32,000 bases of DNA from Candidatus Heimdallarchaeota archaeon (GTDB lineage Archaea; Asgardarchaeota; Heimdallarchaeia; Heimdallarchaeales; Heimdallarchaeaceae). Made by a program: the position numbers and the translations under genes. The notes under the pieces are model-generated. The model did no database searches, was not told the DNA's origin, and worked only from the letters and a program-made list of their open reading frames with translations. Shown in pieces: positions 10,806 to 19,426 of the stretch (position 1 is the first letter of the stretch; every line of letters starts with the position of its first letter). Where the stretch lies: the NCBI GenBank assembly GCA_030668875.1, contig DAOVER010000005.1, positions 60,001 through 92,000 of the forward strand, read 5' to 3'.

Positions 10806-10845
10806 GAAGCACACCTATCACATTAAAGCCACACCGGTGAATTAC

Positions 10846-12291
10846 ATGGTTTCAAAGTTCTTGATGCTATTCAAACCGTTTCAACGTTTTACCTTTGAGG
10901 TAAAGAAGCCAGCAAGAAAACCTTCTTTTAAAAGAAAGTTAGCTTGGACCTTCGGAATCCTAGCCCTCTATTTAGCTATGCTAAATATTCCTATTTTCGG
11001 TATACCTGAATCAGGTGGAACCGATCCCTTCTTCGCCATGAGGGCAATATTAGCTTCACAAAGAGGAAGCTTAGCAGAATTAGGTATAGGACCTATTGTA
11101 ACTGCTGGTTTGATTATGCAGTTACTTGTGGGATCACAAATTATCAAAGTTGATTTTACTAATCCTGAAGAACGTGCTCTATACACCGGAACACAAAAAA
11201 TACTTGCTATATTGATGACCCTATTCGAAGCTTTAGCATATATTCTTGGTGGAGCTTATGGAGAGTTAGGTTTCCAAGCACAAATGATTGTATTATTGCA
11301 ATTAATTGTTGCAGGTTTTACCATTCTTCTTATGGATGAAGTTATCCAGAAAGGTTATGGACTTGGAAGCGGTATTAGTTTATTCATTGCTGCAAGTGTT
11401 TCATATACTATCTTTGATGGCATGTTCAGTTTAACGCAAGAAAGAATTGGAGGTTTTGATTGGTACAGAGGTTGCGTTCTCGCATTCTTTCAAGGTATCT
11501 TCAAAGAAAATCCAGACATACTAACACCACTCAGTAGACCTGGTAGAACCCCCGATGTAATTGGTTTACTGGCAACAATAGTTGTTTTTGCAATGGTTAT
11601 CTATGTAGACTCTATGAAAATTGAGATACCTGTCCAACACAGCCAATATAAGATGCCAGCCAGATATCCAATAAAATTCTTATATACGTCAAATATCCCT
11701 GTAATCCTTGTAAGCGCCTTATTTGCAAACATCTACTTCGTTTCAAACCTAATGCACAACTCTTGGAGTGATATAACAACGGGTTATCAAGGATTCTTGG
11801 TCGACTTTTTCGGTAGATGGGATACGATAGAAGGCACGGAACAACTAACTCCAGTTTCGGGGCTAGCAGCTTTTACAACGGCACCGTATGGACCTGAACA
11901 AATTGCGGAGCAACCGTGGCATGCCCTAGTGTATTTACTATTAATGGTTGCACTTTGTGGTATCTTCTCGCGTATTTGGATAGATACGGCTGGGATGAGT
12001 TCAAAAAATGTTGCGAAACAACTGTTAGATGCAAATATGCAAATACCTGGTTTTAGGCGTAATCCAAGGATTGTAGAAAGATATCTAGAAAGATACATTC
12101 CTACAGCAGCCTGGCTCGGAGGTTTCTTTATAGGTGTTCTAGCAGCAGTAGCGGACTTTCTGGGAGCTCTTGGTACGGGTACTGGTATTCTGTTAACAAC
12201 GGGTATTCTCCGTCAGTACTATGAAATCTTCGCTAGTGAACAAATTAGTGAAACTGTTCCAGCTTTAGCTGGAATGTTAGGAATAAAATAA
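10846..12291 (+). CDS. secY: Preprotein translocase SecY/Sec61-alpha (canonical copy)
   Basis: 'FEVKKP', plug region 'ASQRGSLAELGIGPIV', 'KGYGLGSGISLFI', 'YPIKFLYTSNIP', 'QIPGFRR', 'GTGTGILL'. The ATG at 10846 follows a GGTGA RBS. Confidence 0.97.
   Translation: MVSKFLMLFKPFQRFTFEVKKPARKPSFKRKLAWTFGILALYLAMLNIPIFGIPESGGTDPFFAMRAILASQRGSLAELGIGPIVTAGLIMQLLVGSQIIKVDFTNPEERALYTGTQKILAILMTLFEALAYILGGAYGELGFQAQMIVLLQLIVAGFTILLMDEVIQKGYGLGSGISLFIAASVSYTIFDGMFSLTQERIGGFDWYRGCVLAFFQGIFKENPDILTPLSRPGRTPDVIGLLATIVVFAMVIYVDSMKIEIPVQHSQYKMPARYPIKFLYTSNIPVILVSALFANIYFVSNLMHNSWSDITTGYQGFLVDFFGRWDTIEGTEQLTPVSGLAAFTTAPYGPEQIAEQPWHALVYLLLMVALCGIFSRIWIDTAGMSSKNVAKQLLDANMQIPGFRRNPRIVERYLERYIPTAAWLGGFFIGVLAAVADFLGALGTGTGILLTTGILRQYYEIFASEQISETVPALAGMLGIK
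11407..11544 (+). repeat. secY segment nearly identical to 17405-17542 in the paralog
   Basis: Hand alignment gives 121/138 nt identical, including the perfect 28-mer TTGGAGGTTTTGATTGGTACAGAGGTTG. Confidence 0.9.
11809..11879 (+). repeat. secY segment nearly identical to 17807-17877 in the paralog
   Basis: Hand alignment gives 65/71 nt identical, with shared GC-ending codons (ACG, GGC, TCG, GGG). Confidence 0.9.
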
Positions 12292-12331
12292 AATTCCTCC
12301 CCCTTTTTTTACTTTTATTTTAGTATCCCTA

Positions 12332-13282
12332 CTAAAGATGTAGGTCTATCACTTTGTTTGTCTCGATACTTTCGATAGATGCGAGAGCAATCTTTAAAGC
12401 TTTAAGCCCATCGACCGAAGTTACAACAGGTTGTTTATTTTCTAAACATGCTTCCGCGAAAGAATTCATTTCTCTGCTTAATGGTTCTTGCCAAGTTGAT
12501 TTTGTATTTCGTAACCACTCATCGTCTTCAATGATATATTCTTGTGTGATGTAATCAGCTTCTACTATCCCTTGCTCACAAGTAAGCATCAATTTTCTAT
12601 ATCTGTGAGGTGTTAAATAATTAGATTCAATGAAACCAGTCAACCCATTATCAAAATCAAGTAATATTTCAGCATAATCAATATAGCTATGACGTAATTT
12701 TCCTCCACGAGCATACACGGAAATAGGATCTTTTGAAGTTAAATATCTGAAAGCATCAATATCATGGATACTCACATCACGAATAACATCAACATCTTTT
12801 AACCTATCAGGCCAAAATGGGCCTAGCCTTCTTGCACTCAACAATACAAGTTCACCTAGTTCCCCACTCCCTATGAGAGTTAGTGATTTGCCAATTATTG
12901 GATTGAAACGTTCGATAAAACCTACAGACACAATAACGTTTGAGCTTTTAGCTGCATCAATAATTTTCTCTGCTTCTTCTAAGGTACTTGTCATAGGCTT
13001 CTCTATCATAACATGTTTTCCATGCTCTATAGCTTTGAGCGCTATTTCCCCGTGAGTAGAAGTAGGAGAAGCTATACTAACCGCATCTATTTCATTTAGA
13101 CTCAATAGCTCATCTAAATCTGAAAAAGCTCTAGCACGATGTATCACTGCCAACTCTTTAGCCTTTTCAAGCTGAATATCATAAATACCAATAAGGTTTG
13201 TTTTTTCCATTTCTTTAAAAGCTCTTGCGTGGTTTTTACCCCAGCTTCCTACTCCGATAACTGCCATATTGAGTTTTTTCAT
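12332..13282 (-). CDS. Gfo/Idh/MocA-family NAD(P)-dependent oxidoreductase
   Basis: 'AVIGVGSWG', 'HVMIEKP', 'VGFIERFNP', 'DVSIHDID'. Confidence 0.92.
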   Translation of the reverse strand: MKKLNMAVIGVGSWGKNHARAFKEMEKTNLIGIYDIQLEKAKELAVIHRARAFSDLDELLSLNEIDAVSIASPTSTHGEIALKAIEHGKHVMIEKPMTSTLEEAEKIIDAAKSSNVIVSVGFIERFNPIIGKSLTLIGSGELGELVLLSARRLGPFWPDRLKDVDVIRDVSIHDIDAFRYLTSKDPISVYARGGKLRHSYIDYAEILLDFDNGLTGFIESNYLTPHRYRKLMLTCEQGIVEADYITQEYIIEDDEWLRNTKSTWQEPLSREMNSFAEACLENKQPVVTSVDGLKALKIALASIESIETNKVIDLHL

Positions 13283-13384
13283 CGAATCACTACCAACTAC
13301 ATAAATTAATTTTACTCGCTTTGAGTAAACATAAGTGAATATTTAAAATTTTTTGTATGATTATTCTAAAAAATGAATTAGAGT

Positions 13385-13404
13385 AAATAAAAAGAAAAGA
13401 AAAA
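13385..13404 (-). terminator. Oligo-T terminator candidate after uL15
   Basis: Minus-strand T-tract immediately 3' of the uL15 stop. Confidence 0.45.
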
Positions 13405-13854
13405 TTAGTTAGAGCTGCTTAGTTGAACTTTGCCACCAGCAGACTCTATTTTCTTAATTGCTCTTTTACTAGCTTCAGCAACTACAATATTCATCGCAGT
13501 GTTGACTTCGCCTTGAGCAAGAAGTTTAGTATAACCAAGCTCTGTCAAATTGACTTCGTATTTAGCACCCTTCTTTGTGACTTTTCCTTCACGTTCGAGG
13601 GTTGTGACCATTGAGTCTAAATGAGAGACATTGATTACAGTGTTGTCTTTTATGGATTCTCGAGGGCGGATGAAACCATGTTTTCCAATTGGAGGACGCA
13701 AACCTTTAATCGTTTGAATCCAGTGATGTGACTTAGGAGCAGCTTTACCTACTCCCCCGCGCATACCACTTTTTCTGTGGGTTCGTACAACTCCCCAACC
13801 ATGGGTTCTGTATCCGCGACGTTTTCCGGTTTTCTTCTTAGTTCTAACTGTCAT
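13405..13854 (-). CDS. rpl15: Ribosomal protein uL15
   Basis: 'RRGYRTHGWG...HRKSGMRGGVGKA', 'GKHGFIRP', 'KLLAQG', 'ASKRAIKKIESAGG'. ATG at 13854. Confidence 0.97.
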   Translation of the reverse strand: MTVRTKKKTGKRRGYRTHGWGVVRTHRKSGMRGGVGKAAPKSHHWIQTIKGLRPPIGKHGFIRPRESIKDNTVINVSHLDSMVTTLEREGKVTKKGAKYEVNLTELGYTKLLAQGEVNTAMNIVVAEASKRAIKKIESAGGKVQLSSSN

Positions 13855-13859
13855 TTTGA

Positions 13860-14348
13860 TCACGCCATCCTTACAATAAGCTCGTTTATAGCTGAGCCTC
13901 TATAACCTAAATCTCCGCCATCTGCAAAGCTTCTTTTAACAGATTTGTAACCTTTTCTTGCAGGATGTAATCTGAAAAATTTCTTTAGCTTAGGAACCTT
14001 TTGAATTATAGTTTCTCCTGTCATTAGAGCTTTTGAAAGTGACTTTATGGTTGGATATTCAGTATTTTCCTTAACAAACTTATCAGTCAATCTAATTTTT
14101 CCTTCAGACTCTCCTCTTTTCCTTAGGACATGTTCTAAAGCTTCTTGGTTTATTTCACCCCAAGTTACATGATCTTTTGCACGCTTTAGCATACCAAGGG
14201 TTGAAGGAGTATTAAGAAATAATGACATATAGTTTGTCTTACGAATGTTTAACATATCCAAATTTTGTTGAACCTTATAGAAGACGTTAATTCTTCCTCT
14301 AATTCTAATAACTGCCAACAATTTTAGAGTATCTTGTTTTTCACTCAT
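13860..14348 (-). CDS. rpl30: Ribosomal protein uL30
   Basis: 'AVIRIRG', 'GMLKRAKDHVTWGE', 'FRLHPARKG', 'GDLGYRG..INELIVRM'. ATG at 14348. Confidence 0.95.
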   Translation of the reverse strand: MSEKQDTLKLLAVIRIRGRINVFYKVQQNLDMLNIRKTNYMSLFLNTPSTLGMLKRAKDHVTWGEINQEALEHVLRKRGESEGKIRLTDKFVKENTEYPTIKSLSKALMTGETIIQKVPKLKKFFRLHPARKGYKSVKRSFADGGDLGYRGSAINELIVRMA

Positions 14349-16155: not shown

Positions 16156-16701
16156 TTAATTTTCTGCTTTGTCAGAATCTGCTAATTCATCGAGATCAAG
16201 ATCCTCATCTAATTCGAAATCGTCTTCGAAATCGTCACCAATATCATCTTCAAGTAATTCGTATTCTTCCTCAAGCGATGTTGCGTCAAGCATATCACCA
16301 ATTTCATCTATAGTTGCAGGTGGGTTCAAAACCTTAAGTCCCAAATCAGCTGCATTGTCTAGAATCATTTGCCTCTTACGAGCACCAACGGTGTGCTTAA
16401 TCATAACTGCTTCAGTTTCTTTATCTATTTCTTCAAGTTCATAGATATTAGCAACATGAACTACTTGATAACCCGAAGGATGCAGACCTCTGACAGCTTT
16501 TGGTCCCCGGTATCCTATGCTGACCATAGCAGGATAACCTTTGCGTTTTTCTTTCATTTTATTATCAATACCCTTAGGTTTACGCCAGCTTTTTTTTACT
16601 CTCTTGTAACGCCAGCTTTCTTGCCTAACAAAGTTAGGTCTACGAGCACTGATTTCTTTACGCTTTTTTAGTAAACGTTTCTTATCGACTGTCATAGGCA
16701 C
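16156..16701 (-). CDS. rpl32e: Ribosomal protein eL32 with acidic C-terminal tail
   Basis: 'FVRQESWRYKRV..SWRKPKGIDNK', 'RGLHPSG', 'VGARKR', 'KVLNP', then about 54 extra residues. Start is GTG at 16701 or ATG at 16695. Confidence 0.96.
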   Translation of the reverse strand: MPMTVDKKRLLKKRKEISARRPNFVRQESWRYKRVKKSWRKPKGIDNKMKEKRKGYPAMVSIGYRGPKAVRGLHPSGYQVVHVANIYELEEIDKETEAVMIKHTVGARKRQMILDNAADLGLKVLNPPATIDEIGDMLDATSLEEEYELLEDDIGDDFEDDFELDEDLDLDELADSDKAEN

Positions 16702-16750
16702 TCACAGTAGAATGTTACCTTATTTTGGTTAACCTATCATCTGGCTGTAG

Positions 16751-16764
16751 TTTTTAATACTTTT
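16751..16764 (-). promoter_or_regulatory. BRE-TATA candidate for the eL32-uL15 unit
   Basis: AAAAGTATTAAAAA, identical to the 14-mer at 22465-22478 upstream of uS17. Confidence 0.6.
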
Positions 16765-16833
16765 TATTGGTAAGAAAAAATGAAGTGAAAAGTTATACTA
16801 AACACAAATTTGGGGAAAAAATTAAAAAATTTG

Positions 16834-16847
16834 CAAAGGTTTAAAAT
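16834..16847 (+). promoter_or_regulatory. BRE-TATA candidate for the secY paralog
   Basis: CAAAGG-TTTAAAAT about 21 nt upstream of the ATG at 16868, implying a short or absent leader. Confidence 0.45.
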
Positions 16848-16867
16848 GTTTTAAGAGGAAATCAATA

Positions 16868-18247
16868 ATGGAATCGAAGAAATTGGACTTATTTGATTCA
16901 ATGTCTTCAAGAGTAAGTATCCCATTTAATCTTAAGGTAATTTATACTTCTTTGTTTGCTATTCTTTATCTCATATTTCTAAATATACCCATTTTCGGCG
17001 TGCCTAGTTCAGGAGGAACTGATCCTTTTTTTGCTTTCAGAGTCATTATGGCATCTCAGAGAGGAAGTTTGGCAGAGTTTGGTATTTTTCCGCTTGTATA
17101 CGCATCTTTCATTATGCATGTATTGGTGGGGTTAGGAATTTACAAAATGGATTTCACACAAGCAGAGAAGAGAAAGAAGTTTTCGATTATAGTTACTATT
17201 CTGGGGTTGTTTTTCTCTCTCACATCATCTTTATGTTATGTAATTTTTGGTGCTTATGGAGAGATAAGTGTTGATCAAGGTTTTATAATCATTCCTCAAT
17301 TATTGCTTGCTAGTACTCTTATAATAATAATTGACTATTTCATGAGAAAAGGGTACGGATTGAGCTCTGGTGTAAGCTTGTTTATAGTAGTCAGTGTTTC
17401 ACGAACTATCTTTGATGGTATGTTCAGTTTAAGTCAATTAAGAGTTGGAGGTTTTGATTGGTACAGAGGTTGTATTCTCGCATTCATTCAAGGTATCTTT
17501 AAAGAAGACCCAGATATACTGACACCACTCATCAGACCGGGTTTAACACCTGATTTTCTGGGATTCATTTTAGCAATTATAGTGTTTGGAATGACGATAT
17601 TCTTTGTATCCTTTACCATAAAGAGACCATTCTATCAGAGAGATCAAATTACAAAATCATCGATGACAGCTCAATCATTATACAACTATTCTAATTCCGT
17701 AGTAATAACCAGTTCATTTTTTGCAAATATTTCCTTCGTTTCAAATATGATGTTTAATACATGGAGCTCATTTTCAACGGGATTTAGAAGTTTGTTGGTT
17801 AGTTTCTTCGGTAGATGGGAGACGATAGAAGGCACGAATCAGCTAGCTCCAGTTTCGGGGCTAGCGGCTTTTACAACCCCTCCATATGGGGTTGAACAAA
17901 TTACACAACATCCGTGGAATACTTCGGTGTATTTTCTATTTATGATTGTATATAGTATCCTTATGTCTAGATTATTAGTAAAAACATCAGGAAAGGAAAA
18001 TGTAAGTATTCTAAAAGGAACAGACATATTTAATCAAGAAAAATATGAAGTCACTAATTTCCCTTTAGCATTATTAGCTGGTTTTTTCATGGGGTTTTTA
18101 GCAGGGTTTTTTAACATCATTTCTCCATTGGGAACAGGAGTAGGTATTCTAATAACAACGTGCATACTGAAACAACTCTTGGACATCATTTCCCATGAAA
18201 AATCCAAATGGAATGAATCAAGAAAAAATACGGAAATTAATAAATAA
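16868..18247 (+). CDS. Divergent SecY/Sec61-alpha paralog lacking cytoplasmic ribosome-binding loops
   Basis: Intact 459-aa ORF colinear with SecY ('GGTDPFF', 'ASQRGSLAE', 'KGYGLSSGVSLFI', 'GTGVGIL'). Loop 8/9 'IPGFRR' is missing, and loop 6/7 and both termini are barely alignable. Confidence 0.93.
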   Translation: MESKKLDLFDSMSSRVSIPFNLKVIYTSLFAILYLIFLNIPIFGVPSSGGTDPFFAFRVIMASQRGSLAEFGIFPLVYASFIMHVLVGLGIYKMDFTQAEKRKKFSIIVTILGLFFSLTSSLCYVIFGAYGEISVDQGFIIIPQLLLASTLIIIIDYFMRKGYGLSSGVSLFIVVSVSRTIFDGMFSLSQLRVGGFDWYRGCILAFIQGIFKEDPDILTPLIRPGLTPDFLGFILAIIVFGMTIFFVSFTIKRPFYQRDQITKSSMTAQSLYNYSNSVVITSSFFANISFVSNMMFNTWSSFSTGFRSLLVSFFGRWETIEGTNQLAPVSGLAAFTTPPYGVEQITQHPWNTSVYFLFMIVYSILMSRLLVKTSGKENVSILKGTDIFNQEKYEVTNFPLALLAGFFMGFLAGFFNIISPLGTGVGILITTCILKQLLDIISHEKSKWNESRKNTEINK

Positions 18248-18293
18248 AAAATCAAGAAACATTAAGAAAAATAAAAAAAGAAGAATTGGAAAC

Positions 18294-18845
18294 TTATTCG
18301 CTTGCCCACTTCCAGATTCCATCCATAAATGTTTCAGGATCTTTCTTTCTCTTACCCCTTAATCTACAGATTTCTTTCATGTTGGTAGTGGTTTGTCCTA
18401 CAGCTTCTTTATCGATACCTTCTATGATAACATCATCTTTGTCAACCTTAACAGTTGTATCATCTCCTACAATAGGAACAATCAAAGGTTTTCTTCCTCC
18501 ATAGAGGTTCTTGATTGTTATTAGACGTTTCTTGTTATCAGGTTCAACTGTAATTGGAAAATGGCTGAAGATTATTTTTGATCTATAGACATAACCTTCT
18601 GTTACACCTATCATCATGTTTTTGAGATGACCTACAACGGCAAGCATTTTTGCCTTTTTCTTTTTGTCAACGAAATAGGATTTGACATTGATTTTATCTT
18701 TTGACTTCTTTAGTTCTACCTTGAAACCCTCGAAGTTTTTGATAAGTTTACCTCTTTTACCTTCCATGGTAACTATAGTTCCGTCAATAGTTATCTTCAA
18801 ATCCTCAAGTAATTCAACATCTCGTTCAATATATACTTGTTTCAT
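18294..18845 (-). CDS. rpl6: Ribosomal protein uL6
   Basis: 'HLKNMMIGVTEGY', 'FSHFPITV', 'NLYGGR', 'GIDKEAVGQT', 'FMDGIW'. ATG at 18845 follows a GGTGA RBS (alternative starts 18851, 18854). Confidence 0.96.
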   Translation of the reverse strand: MKQVYIERDVELLEDLKITIDGTIVTMEGKRGKLIKNFEGFKVELKKSKDKINVKSYFVDKKKKAKMLAVVGHLKNMMIGVTEGYVYRSKIIFSHFPITVEPDNKKRLITIKNLYGGRKPLIVPIVGDDTTVKVDKDDVIIEGIDKEAVGQTTTNMKEICRLRGKRKKDPETFMDGIWKWASE

Positions 18846-18854
18846 TATCATCAC

Positions 18855-19244
18855 CTAATATATGTAAGCTAATAGCCTTCCACCTATTCCACGTTCTTTT
18901 GCATCCTCGTGGGTTATTACACCTTCAGATGTTGTCATTACAAGGATACCAAAACCTCTTGCAGGTAGGTACTTTCTTTCTTCATCTTCTAGTTTATCAT
19001 GTTTAACTGGAAATCGAGGTTTGATAACACCACATTTGTTAATCCTGCCCATCAATTGTATTTCGAACATTCCTCCACGATGATCTTCTATATATTCAAG
19101 TTCACCGAGATATCCTGCTCTTTGAACAGTTCTGAAAACGTTCGCAATTATTTTACTAGCGGGTTTAACAGTGACGGTTTTCTTACCTTTTTTTTCAGCG
19201 TTAAGTATTGCAACTAAAGCGTCTGCTAATGGATCCATTTGCAT
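18855..19244 (-). CDS. rps8: Ribosomal protein uS8
   Basis: 'DPLADAL..I.NAE', 'KPASK', 'GRINKCGVIKPRF', 'YLPARGFG', 'GGRLLAYIY'. Confidence 0.98.
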   Translation of the reverse strand: MQMDPLADALVAILNAEKKGKKTVTVKPASKIIANVFRTVQRAGYLGELEYIEDHRGGMFEIQLMGRINKCGVIKPRFPVKHDKLEDEERKYLPARGFGILVMTTSEGVITHEDAKERGIGGRLLAYIY

Positions 19245-19258
19245 TTTTCTTTACCTCC

Positions 19259-19426
19259 TTAGCCTCCTCGACTTCCTGTTTTCTTGAAGCCGATTTTGGA
19301 ATATATTTCTCTAATACAGCGTCTGCAAACATACAAACCACCACGTCTAATGATTGCCTGATGTGTTCCACAGCGTCTGCATTTTCTTGAGCCTTTTCCA
19401 TATTTAATTTCTCTTCGTTCTTGCAT
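19259..19426 (-). CDS. rps14: Ribosomal protein uS14 (55 aa, below the ORF-track cutoff)
   Basis: Manual translation MQERREIKYGKGSRKCRRCGTHQAIIRRGGLYVCRRCIREIYSKIGFKKTGSRGG with a CxxC...CxxC zinc site. GGTGA RBS upstream. Lies between uL5 and uS8. Confidence 0.95.
   Translation of the reverse strand: MQERREIKYGKGSRKCRRCGTHQAIIRRGGLYVCRRCIREIYSKIGFKKTGSRGG

Follow-up and report, generated by a model that had tools for sequence, protein, structure and literature searches.

A divergent, lineage-restricted SecY/Sec61-alpha paralog in a ribosomal-protein gene cluster of Heimdallarchaeaceae and its putative uncoupling from the ribosome

In all domains of life, loops 6/7 and 8/9 of the SecY/Sec61-alpha channel are the established contact sites for the ribosome and for the receptor of the signal recognition particle (SRP). 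With their basic (I)PGxR motif, these loops are conserved in the housekeeping subunit, where they can also dock SecA. Second channel copies are known from several lineages. The accessory Sec (aSec) system of bacteria is defined by a single locus that encodes a dedicated SecA2 motor, Asp proteins, and a serine-rich glycoprotein as the substrate; its channel, SecY2, is a divergent SecY that presumably serves a narrow clientele and is not ribosome-coupled. Yeast Ssh1 and plastid SCY2 arose by duplication of the channel subunit in particular lineages and have specialised roles; Ssh1 has kept ribosome binding, acts cotranslationally, and has its own beta subunit, Sbh2, while SCY2 pairs with SECA2. 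Archaea lack SecA and, to our knowledge, their post-translational protein export is unexplained for that reason. Asgard translocons are studied as ancestors of the translocon of the eukaryotic endoplasmic reticulum. The subject of the present analysis is a second SecY/Sec61-alpha gene of a Candidatus Heimdallarchaeota archaeon, located between the genes for the ribosomal proteins uL6 and eL32 in a window of 32,000 nucleotides (the whole stretch of DNA analysed, to which all positions refer). Sequence matches place the organism in the Heimdallarchaeaceae, and the window corresponds to contig 68 of its genome. This host genome (G000) is a metagenome-assembled genome (MAG) of 3.2 Mb in 99 contigs, with 92% completeness and 4.4% contamination. 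The two SecY genes of the window are

16868..18247, plus strand: SecY/Sec61-alpha paralog P0001 ("type A"), intact open reading frame (ORF) of 459 amino acids
10837..12291, plus strand (probable ATG at 10846): canonical SecY P0002, conversion donor, 4.6 kb upstream of the paralog

The gene is best explained as a lineage-restricted, functional accessory SecY/Sec61-alpha paralog, an explanation which, with the role included, is given a probability of about 0.55. Its core, that is, a real gene under selection which has lost the docking motifs and carries gene conversion tracts, is regarded as highly probable; the specific role of a ribosome-uncoupled channel is more tentative and would be somewhat doubtful when taken by itself. 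A full-text literature search of incomplete coverage retrieved no published account of Asgard or archaeal SecY paralogs.

Relation to described SecY proteins

P0001 and P0002 are 49% identical over 439 aligned residues (BLASTP E = 1e-147), and P0001 matches a Sec61-alpha chain of the PDB in a phmmer search (E = 1.9e-52). In profile searches, it behaves as a homolog below the curated thresholds. NCBIfam NF006341 gives 190 bits (E = 7.6e-56; cut-off 300), which is below the equivalog level, and TIGR00967 gives 92 bits (E = 4e-26; cut-off 254); the Pfam search yields Plug_translocon with 40.5 bits and no match to PF00344 (SecY) at E <= 0.01. The respective scores of the canonical copy are 424 bits (NF006341), 287 bits (TIGR00967), and 231 bits (Pfam SecY). 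P0002 is 80-98% identical to the single SecY of congeners and is the housekeeping copy.

With canonical archaeal SecY/Sec61-alpha, the paralog has in common homology over the full length, ten transmembrane (TM) helices, a plug helix, and a hydrophobic pore ring. It differs in the replacement of loops 6/7 and 8/9 and of both terminal tails, in the loss of the IPGFR motif, in its scores below the curated cut-offs, in a rate of evolution that is about 25 times higher, and in being dispensable in most congeners. The resemblance to bacterial SecY2 lies in the presence of a second, divergent SecY. However, as stated in the initial annotation, neither SecA2 nor a serine-rich substrate is encoded nearby: the neighbours are ribosomal-protein genes only, genes for Asp proteins are lacking as well, and P0001 has no match to NF009082. 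The paralog and SecY2 arose independently. From the duplicates Ssh1 and SCY2, the paralog differs by the loss of the docking loops and by the lack of a dedicated partner. By analogy, it would work most like an accessory SecY of the SecY2 or SCY2 kind, but what defines those systems is missing from it. What had been proposed as the best candidate for an undescribed system in the window turned out to be a single-gene insert without a dedicated partner, in a genome with one SecE and one Sec61-beta.

Other Heimdallarchaeia also have second SecY-like proteins in which loops 6/7 and 8/9 are degenerate, namely, a loop-less family of Hodarchaeales (P0079, P0107, P0115, P0152, P0111, P0105, and P0068; also P0081 of Promethearchaeota) whose members bear the NCBI label "hypothetical protein". 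These are 23-29% identical to P0001; they contain their own loop 5/6 insert, RYSxNPxxNxxLPSLS, and in some, the C-terminus is extended and includes an additional hydrophobic segment, both features being foreign to P0001. On the basis of their sequences, the Hodarchaeales proteins are taken as a family separate from the paralog. A fusion to SecE in the C-terminal extensions was considered and rejected, there being no Pfam SecE match at E <= 1. The gene for P0079 (context L042/L043) is located outside the ribosomal cluster, after a helix-turn-helix (HTH)/MarR-like gene and a 58-amino acid ORF.

Cytosolic face, selection, and gene conversion

The AlphaFold2 (AF2) model of P0001 (predicted TM-score, pTM, 0.80) contains ten TM helices in canonical order and a plug helix at residues 55-61. 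Low confidence is restricted to residues 1-15, 260-268 (the tip of loop 6/7), and 376-395 (loop 8/9). In Foldseek, the model aligns with Sec61-alpha 7tm3_1 at a TM-score of 0.82 and with 1rh5_A at 0.85 (target-normalised). With segments classed as cytosolic, TM, or exoplasmic according to the AF2 topology, the identity of the paralog to the canonical copy, as compared with that between the canonical orthologs of G000 and G013, is as follows:

Cytosolic segments: 23% (paralog versus canonical); 95% (canonical G000 versus G013)
TM helices: 42%; 88%
Exoplasmic segments: 75%; 74%

The constraint pattern of the paralog is inverted relative to that of the canonical orthologs. This bears out the initial observation that the cytoplasmic parts, including loops 6/7 and 8/9 and the N-terminus, are rewritten. 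The two loops in question are

17609..17677, plus strand: rewritten cytosolic loop 6/7 (amino acids 248-270), 13% identity versus 96% among canonical orthologs
17990..18034, plus strand: shortened, rewritten cytosolic loop 8/9 (amino acids 375-389), 20% identity versus 100% among canonical orthologs

Both loop 8/9 and the tip of loop 6/7 have values below 50 in the predicted local distance difference test (pLDDT). In the alignment columns of loop 8/9, the paralog has 29 residues versus 42 in the canonical protein, its net charge is 0 versus +4, and IPGFR is gone without any GxR being left. GxR is lacking also from loop 8/9 of the two relatives of P0001 introduced below, that is, the paralog of the congener G016 and protein P0035; in the latter, the loop is 29 residues shorter. 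The basic N-tail and C-tail of canonical SecY are likewise replaced, and the net charge of the cytosolic face amounts to approximately +6 in the paralog versus approximately +13 in the canonical copy. From the loss of these conserved cytosolic elements, the loss of canonical docking of the ribosome and of the SRP receptor (FtsY) can soundly be inferred.

The pore ring, the positions of which are presumably those given by E. coli and human numbering (for TM7 of E. coli, P276, I278, and F286), remains hydrophobic by alignment at I73, V77, V169, I173, I280, and the I/L position of TM10. The hydrophobicity of the ring and the plug motif ASQRG are kept in P0035, too. A change of SNIP to SNSV in TM7 had initially been read as the loss of a pore-ring residue; according to the E. 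coli numbering, however, the ring residue is the second one after the proline, which is I280 in SNSVVIT and is retained, so that this claim appears to concern the wrong residue.

Selection on the gene was assessed from nonsynonymous (dN) and synonymous (dS) substitutions between G000 and G016 by the method of Nei and Gojobori (NG86):

Paralog, N-terminal part: dN 0.17, dS 0.74, dN/dS 0.235
Paralog, C-terminal part: dN 0.12, dS 0.42, dN/dS 0.292
Canonical SecY: dN 0.006, dS 0.34, dN/dS 0.018
Neighbouring genes (ribosomal proteins and oxidoreductase): dN/dS 0.06-0.18

With the conversion tracts left out, dN/dS (omega) of the paralog is 0.229, with a bootstrap confidence interval (CI) of 0.16-0.33. 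The G000 and G016 genes are free of frameshifts and the frames are open in relatives. Neither neutral dN/dS nor decay of the frame, which the initial annotation had named as grounds for abandoning its proposal, was found. In a neutral simulation, an open frame survives in 2.7% of the runs at 0.05 substitutions per site per lineage, in 0.05% at 0.1, and in 0 of 4000 runs at 0.17 or more. An open frame over the wide divergence to P0035, at the same site, is a strong argument for a protein under selection, and the paralog is concluded to be intact and under purifying selection.

A different picture emerges for the exoplasmic loops. Silent sites of the G000 paralog and the canonical gene are saturated over most of the gene, the overall proportion of silent differences (pS) being 0.63, while pS drops to 0.08-0.15 in amino acids 181-210 and to approximately 0.29 in amino acids 311-340. 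The regions concerned, together with the plug, are

17393..17536, plus strand: conversion tract 1 (end of TM5 and loop 5/6, amino acids 176-223), partner 11395-11538
17807..17902, plus strand: conversion tract 2 (loop 7/8, amino acids 314-345), partner 11809-11904, 13 of 96 nucleotides differing
16988..17077, plus strand: plug region (amino acids 41-70, GGTDPFF..ASQRGSLAE), 80-85% amino acid identity to canonical SecY

In tract 1, 19 of 144 nucleotides differ, compared with about 50% in the flanks, and a contig with the canonical gene cross-maps onto this tract. The clustering is significant in a codon-shuffle test (P < 0.0005) and for silent codons (P = 0.003); altogether, the tracts make up about 17% of the paralog gene. 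Since the synonymous sites are near-identical as well, the near-identity of loops 5/6 and 7/8 is ascribed to gene conversion and not to ancient conservation. The process is recurrent. In the loop 7/8-TM8 region of G016, stretches of 51 and 54 nucleotides that flank a contig break are identical to the canonical gene of the same genome, and they include species-specific silent variants at which the G000 paralog differs; this indicates a recent, independent conversion of the G016 paralog by its canonical gene. The break in the assembly inside that paralog is attributed to the recent conversion tract. Also in P0035, loops 5/6 and 7/8 have subclade-specific sequence in common with the canonical SecY of the nearest genome.

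In the plug region, by comparison, silent sites are saturated (pS 0.8-1.1), with a nonsynonymous proportion (pN) of 0.10-0.16, and the combination of saturated silent sites and high amino acid identity argues for conservation by selection and not by conversion. The plug is the only clean evidence of long-term conservation on the outer side. Of the initial claim that the paralog kept its outer face, the similarity of the loops and the conservation of the plug hold true, but loops 5/6 and 7/8 owe their likeness to conversion. The tracts avoid the cytosolic loops, which may result either from selection against restoring docking or from a need of conversion for residual similarity.

As to partner subunits, the host genome encodes one SecE/Sec61-gamma (L027:1486-1686, 36 bits, in the usual uL11/Spt5 context) and one Sec61-beta (L033:1444-1635, 49 bits). 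Docking of P0001 with SecE is weakly supported by a predicted value of 0.52, versus 0.00 for the best control, a value that may reflect likeness to solved SecY-SecE complexes and that lies in a range (0.60 or under) in which 7 of 80 solved complexes and both mismatched pairs that reached the docking mark were found. Of the 80 solved complexes, 58 reached the mark itself, as did 2 of 110 mismatched pairs. The three docking runs agree in at least 92% of the contacts, with pLDDT of the partner at 69 or above. Use of the same SecE of the cell by the paralog is plausible from this model. A 65-amino acid ORF elsewhere in the genome (G000:C95:33654-33731; L029) has a subthreshold SecE match (17 bits, E = 0.017) that could be due to chance.

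Insertion site, distribution, and origin

The intact paralog is located antisense to the flanking uL6 and eL32 genes, as initially annotated, and on the same strand as canonical SecY; the peptides quoted in that annotation are all present in P0001 or P0002. The gene order is uS8 and uL6 (minus strand), the paralog (plus strand), and eL32, eL19, uL18, uS5, uL30, and uL15 (minus strand), followed beyond uL15 by a GFO/IDH-type oxidoreductase gene and canonical SecY (plus strand). Features of the insertion site are

16156..16701, minus strand: eL32, flanking gene (Pfam Ribosomal_L32e, E = 2e-41)
16702..16779, minus strand: left insert border, a spacer element of about 77 nucleotides at the start of eL32, conserved at filled and empty sites
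16780..16867, plus strand: 5' part of the inserted cassette with putative promoter and Shine-Dalgarno sequence, lacking in empty-site relatives
18268..18293, no strand assigned: right insert border, the flank at the uL6 stop, kept in empty-site relatives
18294..18854, minus strand: uL6, flanking gene (Pfam Ribosomal_L6)

The paralog is not confined to one assembly: G016 and the host of P0035 have it at the corresponding position. In G016, a congener with the same gene order, two contig ends (L022 5214-6224 and L023 3241-3624) each carry a part of it, with 72-78% identity to P0001. P0035, found by exhaustive profile-free search, is an intact protein of 452 amino acids with 32% identity to P0001; its gene has the same site and orientation, antisense between eL32 and uL6, on a JGI/ENA contig. 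The eL32 gene of that contig is 92% identical to that of G015 at the DNA level, and the P0035 host is for this reason regarded as a distant congener. A separately assembled contig of 13.5 kb, from a run that is possibly of the same source sample, covers positions 16547-19300 with zero differences. Pieces of the paralog with 93-98% identity are present in two cold-seep runs of another study, and a JGI sample contains a fragment of 94 amino acids with 97% identity. In the same two cold-seep runs, other contigs join position 16779/16781 straight to 18268, that is, they stem from relatives without the gene.

In 18 species genomes of the genus, the uL6-eL32 spacer is empty and 124-210 nucleotides long; G021 and G002, two of the closest relatives, belong to this set, which takes in the nearest sister species. 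The spacer element at 16702-16779 is 90-92% identical in G016, G021, and G002 and is largely conserved in the P0035 host, while the remainder of the spacer is unalignable across these congeners. It is probably the promoter or leader of the eL32-uL15 transcription unit; an Rfam scan of the window, this element included, retrieved no family at gathering score. On the right side, the joints in X5 and X6 resume at 18268, and there is a 19-nucleotide match to the end of the G021 spacer. From the flanks conserved at filled and empty sites (about 77 nucleotides on the eL32 side and about 19 on the uL6 side), the insert is concluded to span approximately 16780-18267. No terminal inverted repeats and no target-site duplication were found at its borders, where only low-complexity 10-mers are present. 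The end of the K/N/E-rich tail of the paralog and the downstream spacer are covered by an imperfect tandem duplication of 34 nucleotides (18216-18283, 74% identity).

Upstream of the gene, an A/T run (16816-16832), a TATA-like tttaaaat (16840-16847), and a Shine-Dalgarno GAGG (16855-16858) are present. The last 50 nucleotides before the ATG are 88% conserved with G016, compared with approximately 60% in the more distal spacer, and positions 16780-16867 are absent from the spacers of G021 and G002. The TATA-like element reported in the initial annotation does exist, but such motifs are without significance in DNA of 35% GC content, so that their support comes from conservation with G016; a promoter function of 16780-16867 would fit this pattern.

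The uL6-eL32 junction looks like a transcription-unit boundary and rearrangement hot spot. G003 and G020 have the ancestral co-directional eL32-uL15-SecY order, yet it is broken exactly at the uL6-eL32 junction, and G015 (L082) is differently rearranged around SecY and this junction. In G000 (window positions 10837-13863), canonical SecY is inverted relative to uL15 with the oxidoreductase gene in between, as compared with the ancestral order in G003 (L080); the surroundings of SecY and the uL6-eL32 junction have been rearranged repeatedly within one genus.

In phylogenetic trees, all of which are quick searches with support from the Shimodaira-Hasegawa-like approximate likelihood-ratio test (SH-aLRT) only, the paralogs of G000 and G016, P0035, and a second group termed type B (in G004, G006, and G018, with P0015, P0016, and P0029) form one clade with SH-aLRT values of 98-100, irrespective of whether tract columns are included. 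The clade branches near the base of the canonical SecY radiation of the genus, on stems of 1.4-2.7 substitutions per site versus 0.01-0.1 on canonical branches. A recent local duplication of the resident canonical gene was rejected on nontract columns in the approximately unbiased (AU) test (p = 0.0014 for type A and approximately 0 for type B), and a clade of P0035 with type A was not rejected (p = 0.52). Long-branch attraction and the compositional shift may affect the placement and are real caveats. The initial annotation had suggested looking for a clade with degenerate loop 8/9; in the present clade, loop 8/9 is degenerate in G000, G016, and P0035 and kept in type B. The distribution of the paralog is narrow and patchy (2 of 24 species genomes of the genus, plus metagenomic relatives). 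The type B loci are

L024:1139-2440: type B paralog of G006
L025:6890-8188: type B paralog of G018
L026:6794-8080: type B paralog of G004

In type B, the anatomy is reversed: it is the hairpin of exoplasmic loop 7/8 that is deleted, and cytosolic loops 6/7 and 8/9 (IPGFRE) have been preserved. Types A and B have in common derived changes such as that of GIGP to GI(F/I/L)P in TM2b. The type B genes are located at other genomic sites, in G004 and G018 near genes with a serine-recombinase "Recombinase" domain, and may be part of a mobile element.

Competing explanations and significance

Summarizing the preferred explanation, the gene belongs to a fast-evolving paralog clade that would have separated from canonical SecY at about the base of one genus of the Heimdallarchaeaceae. 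It forms a single-gene cassette of about 1.49 kb that includes an upstream region of its own and is located in the spacer of the uS8-uL6 and eL32-uL15 units. The channel fold with ten TM helices, the plug, and the hydrophobic pore ring are kept and the whole cytosolic surface is replaced, so that canonical docking of ribosomes and of the SRP receptor would no longer be possible. The protein might act as a ribosome-uncoupled channel or insertase, probably together with the single SecE and Sec61-beta, for a narrow clientele, or it might assist the main translocon. Loops 5/6 and 7/8, but not the cytosolic loops, are renewed by recurrent conversion, with the canonical gene, located 4.6 kb away and in direct orientation, as donor. 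Of the case made initially for a ribosome-independent variant, the specific loss of the docking elements is supported, and the arguments from the outer face and from the pore ring are not supported in the form given.

A number of observations weigh against this explanation. At the lateral gate, polar positions are altered, with Y in place of T in TM2b and S in place of E in TM3, and TM7 has lost its proline. The gene occurs in only 2 of the 24 species genomes of the genus, plus metagenomic relatives, and 18 congeners have the empty site. The 92% complete host genome contains no adjacent or second SecE or Sec61-beta above cut-off, there is no candidate substrate, and we know of no motor for post-translational Sec transport in archaea. 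The dN of the paralog is about 25 times that of canonical SecY (0.17 versus 0.006) and its dN/dS about 13 times higher; when scaled to the dS of the neighbours (approximately 0.3), omega would be approximately 0.5, which is still below 1. Codons have drifted towards AT, with a GC content at first positions (GC1) of 0.36 versus 0.48 in the canonical gene and 10.7% serine versus 5.2%. This drift, the fast evolution, and the subthreshold SecY scores fit a much-relaxed constraint.

Some of these points are also what would be expected from a slowly degenerating, redundant duplicate of which parts are repaired by conversion and in which the loss of the docking loops is decay. The AT-driven shift of the amino acid composition, the missed family thresholds, the dN value, the absence from most congeners, and the lack of partner genes are in line with this, but dN/dS outside the tracts is 0.23 with an upper CI limit of 0.33, and the frame is open in G000, G016, and P0035, where neutral survival would be at most 0.05% already at d = 0.1. 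Because the tracts cover only about 17% of the gene, conversion cannot have kept the rest of the frame open. In addition, the plug and the pore-ring positions have been retained although silent sites are saturated, and the promoter-proximal sequence is conserved, so that decay is deemed distinctly improbable. An artefact of assembly or binning, in the sense of a chimeric contig with a foreign SecY, might be suspected for a MAG of 99 contigs with 4.4% contamination. It was rejected and has practically no chance of being correct: the junctions are spanned by the 13.5-kb contig (even if possibly from the same source sample), the cold-seep runs from a different study contain pieces of the gene, G016 and the JGI/ENA contig have the insert at an identical site, and the conversion tracts tie the paralog to the resident canonical gene.

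Two further explanations accept a functional protein and assign another role to it. An accessory gene related to genetic conflict, either a SecY decoy or immunity variant (e.g., to ward off a virus or toxin exploiting the exoplasmic face) or a gene disseminated by mobile elements, would have its outside kept like the host SecY by conversion and its inside uncoupled from translation. The patchy occurrence among close relatives, with empty-site contigs in the same samples, the very fast evolution, the repeated resetting of the exoplasmic loops to the resident canonical sequence in G000, G016, and apparently the P0035 host, and the position of sister type B paralogs next to serine-recombinase-domain genes in G004 and G018 would be compatible with such a role. 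However, no defence, viral, or mobility gene adjoins the type A copy, terminal repeats and target-site duplications are missing there, the average dN/dS is well below 1, and no virus or toxin of these archaea is generally known to target SecY; moreover, the tracts may just mark regions with enough surviving similarity. Conflict is therefore held to be unlikely, yet it is ranked before decay. The last candidate, a nonconducting partner or regulator that pairs with canonical SecY or competes for SecE, Sec61-beta, or exoplasmic partners, would draw on the exoplasmic loops and plug common to the canonical copy, on the single SecE and single Sec61-beta of the genome, and on the weakly supported SecE interface of the docking model. 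Yet, pore ring and plug are kept in very divergent members, for which a working pore is the easier explanation, and SecY hetero-oligomers are without evidence in archaea; this candidate is rated lower still than decay.

If the function of the accessory paralog proved trivial, the gene would be a lineage-specific oddity of limited reach. Irrespective of function, the locus is a clean example of mosaic concerted evolution, in which tracts confined to exoplasmic loops can mislead conservation-based inference. In a wider, speculative scenario, which is considered improbable although somewhat less so than genetic conflict, Heimdallarchaeia would have evolved ribosome-uncoupled SecY channels more than once, in the clade of this genus and in the Hodarchaeales family, as dedicated translocons of the post-translational or insertase type. 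This would represent a prokaryotic counterpart of the eukaryotic split between cotranslational and post-translational Sec61 in the archaeal lineage closest to eukaryotes, and conversion would match the exoplasmic interface of the paralog to shared outer partners. With pore and plug kept and the docking elements shed, the paralog may serve as a natural separation-of-function experiment on the channel, and it would be a concrete, expressible candidate for a ribosome-independent route of protein export in archaea.

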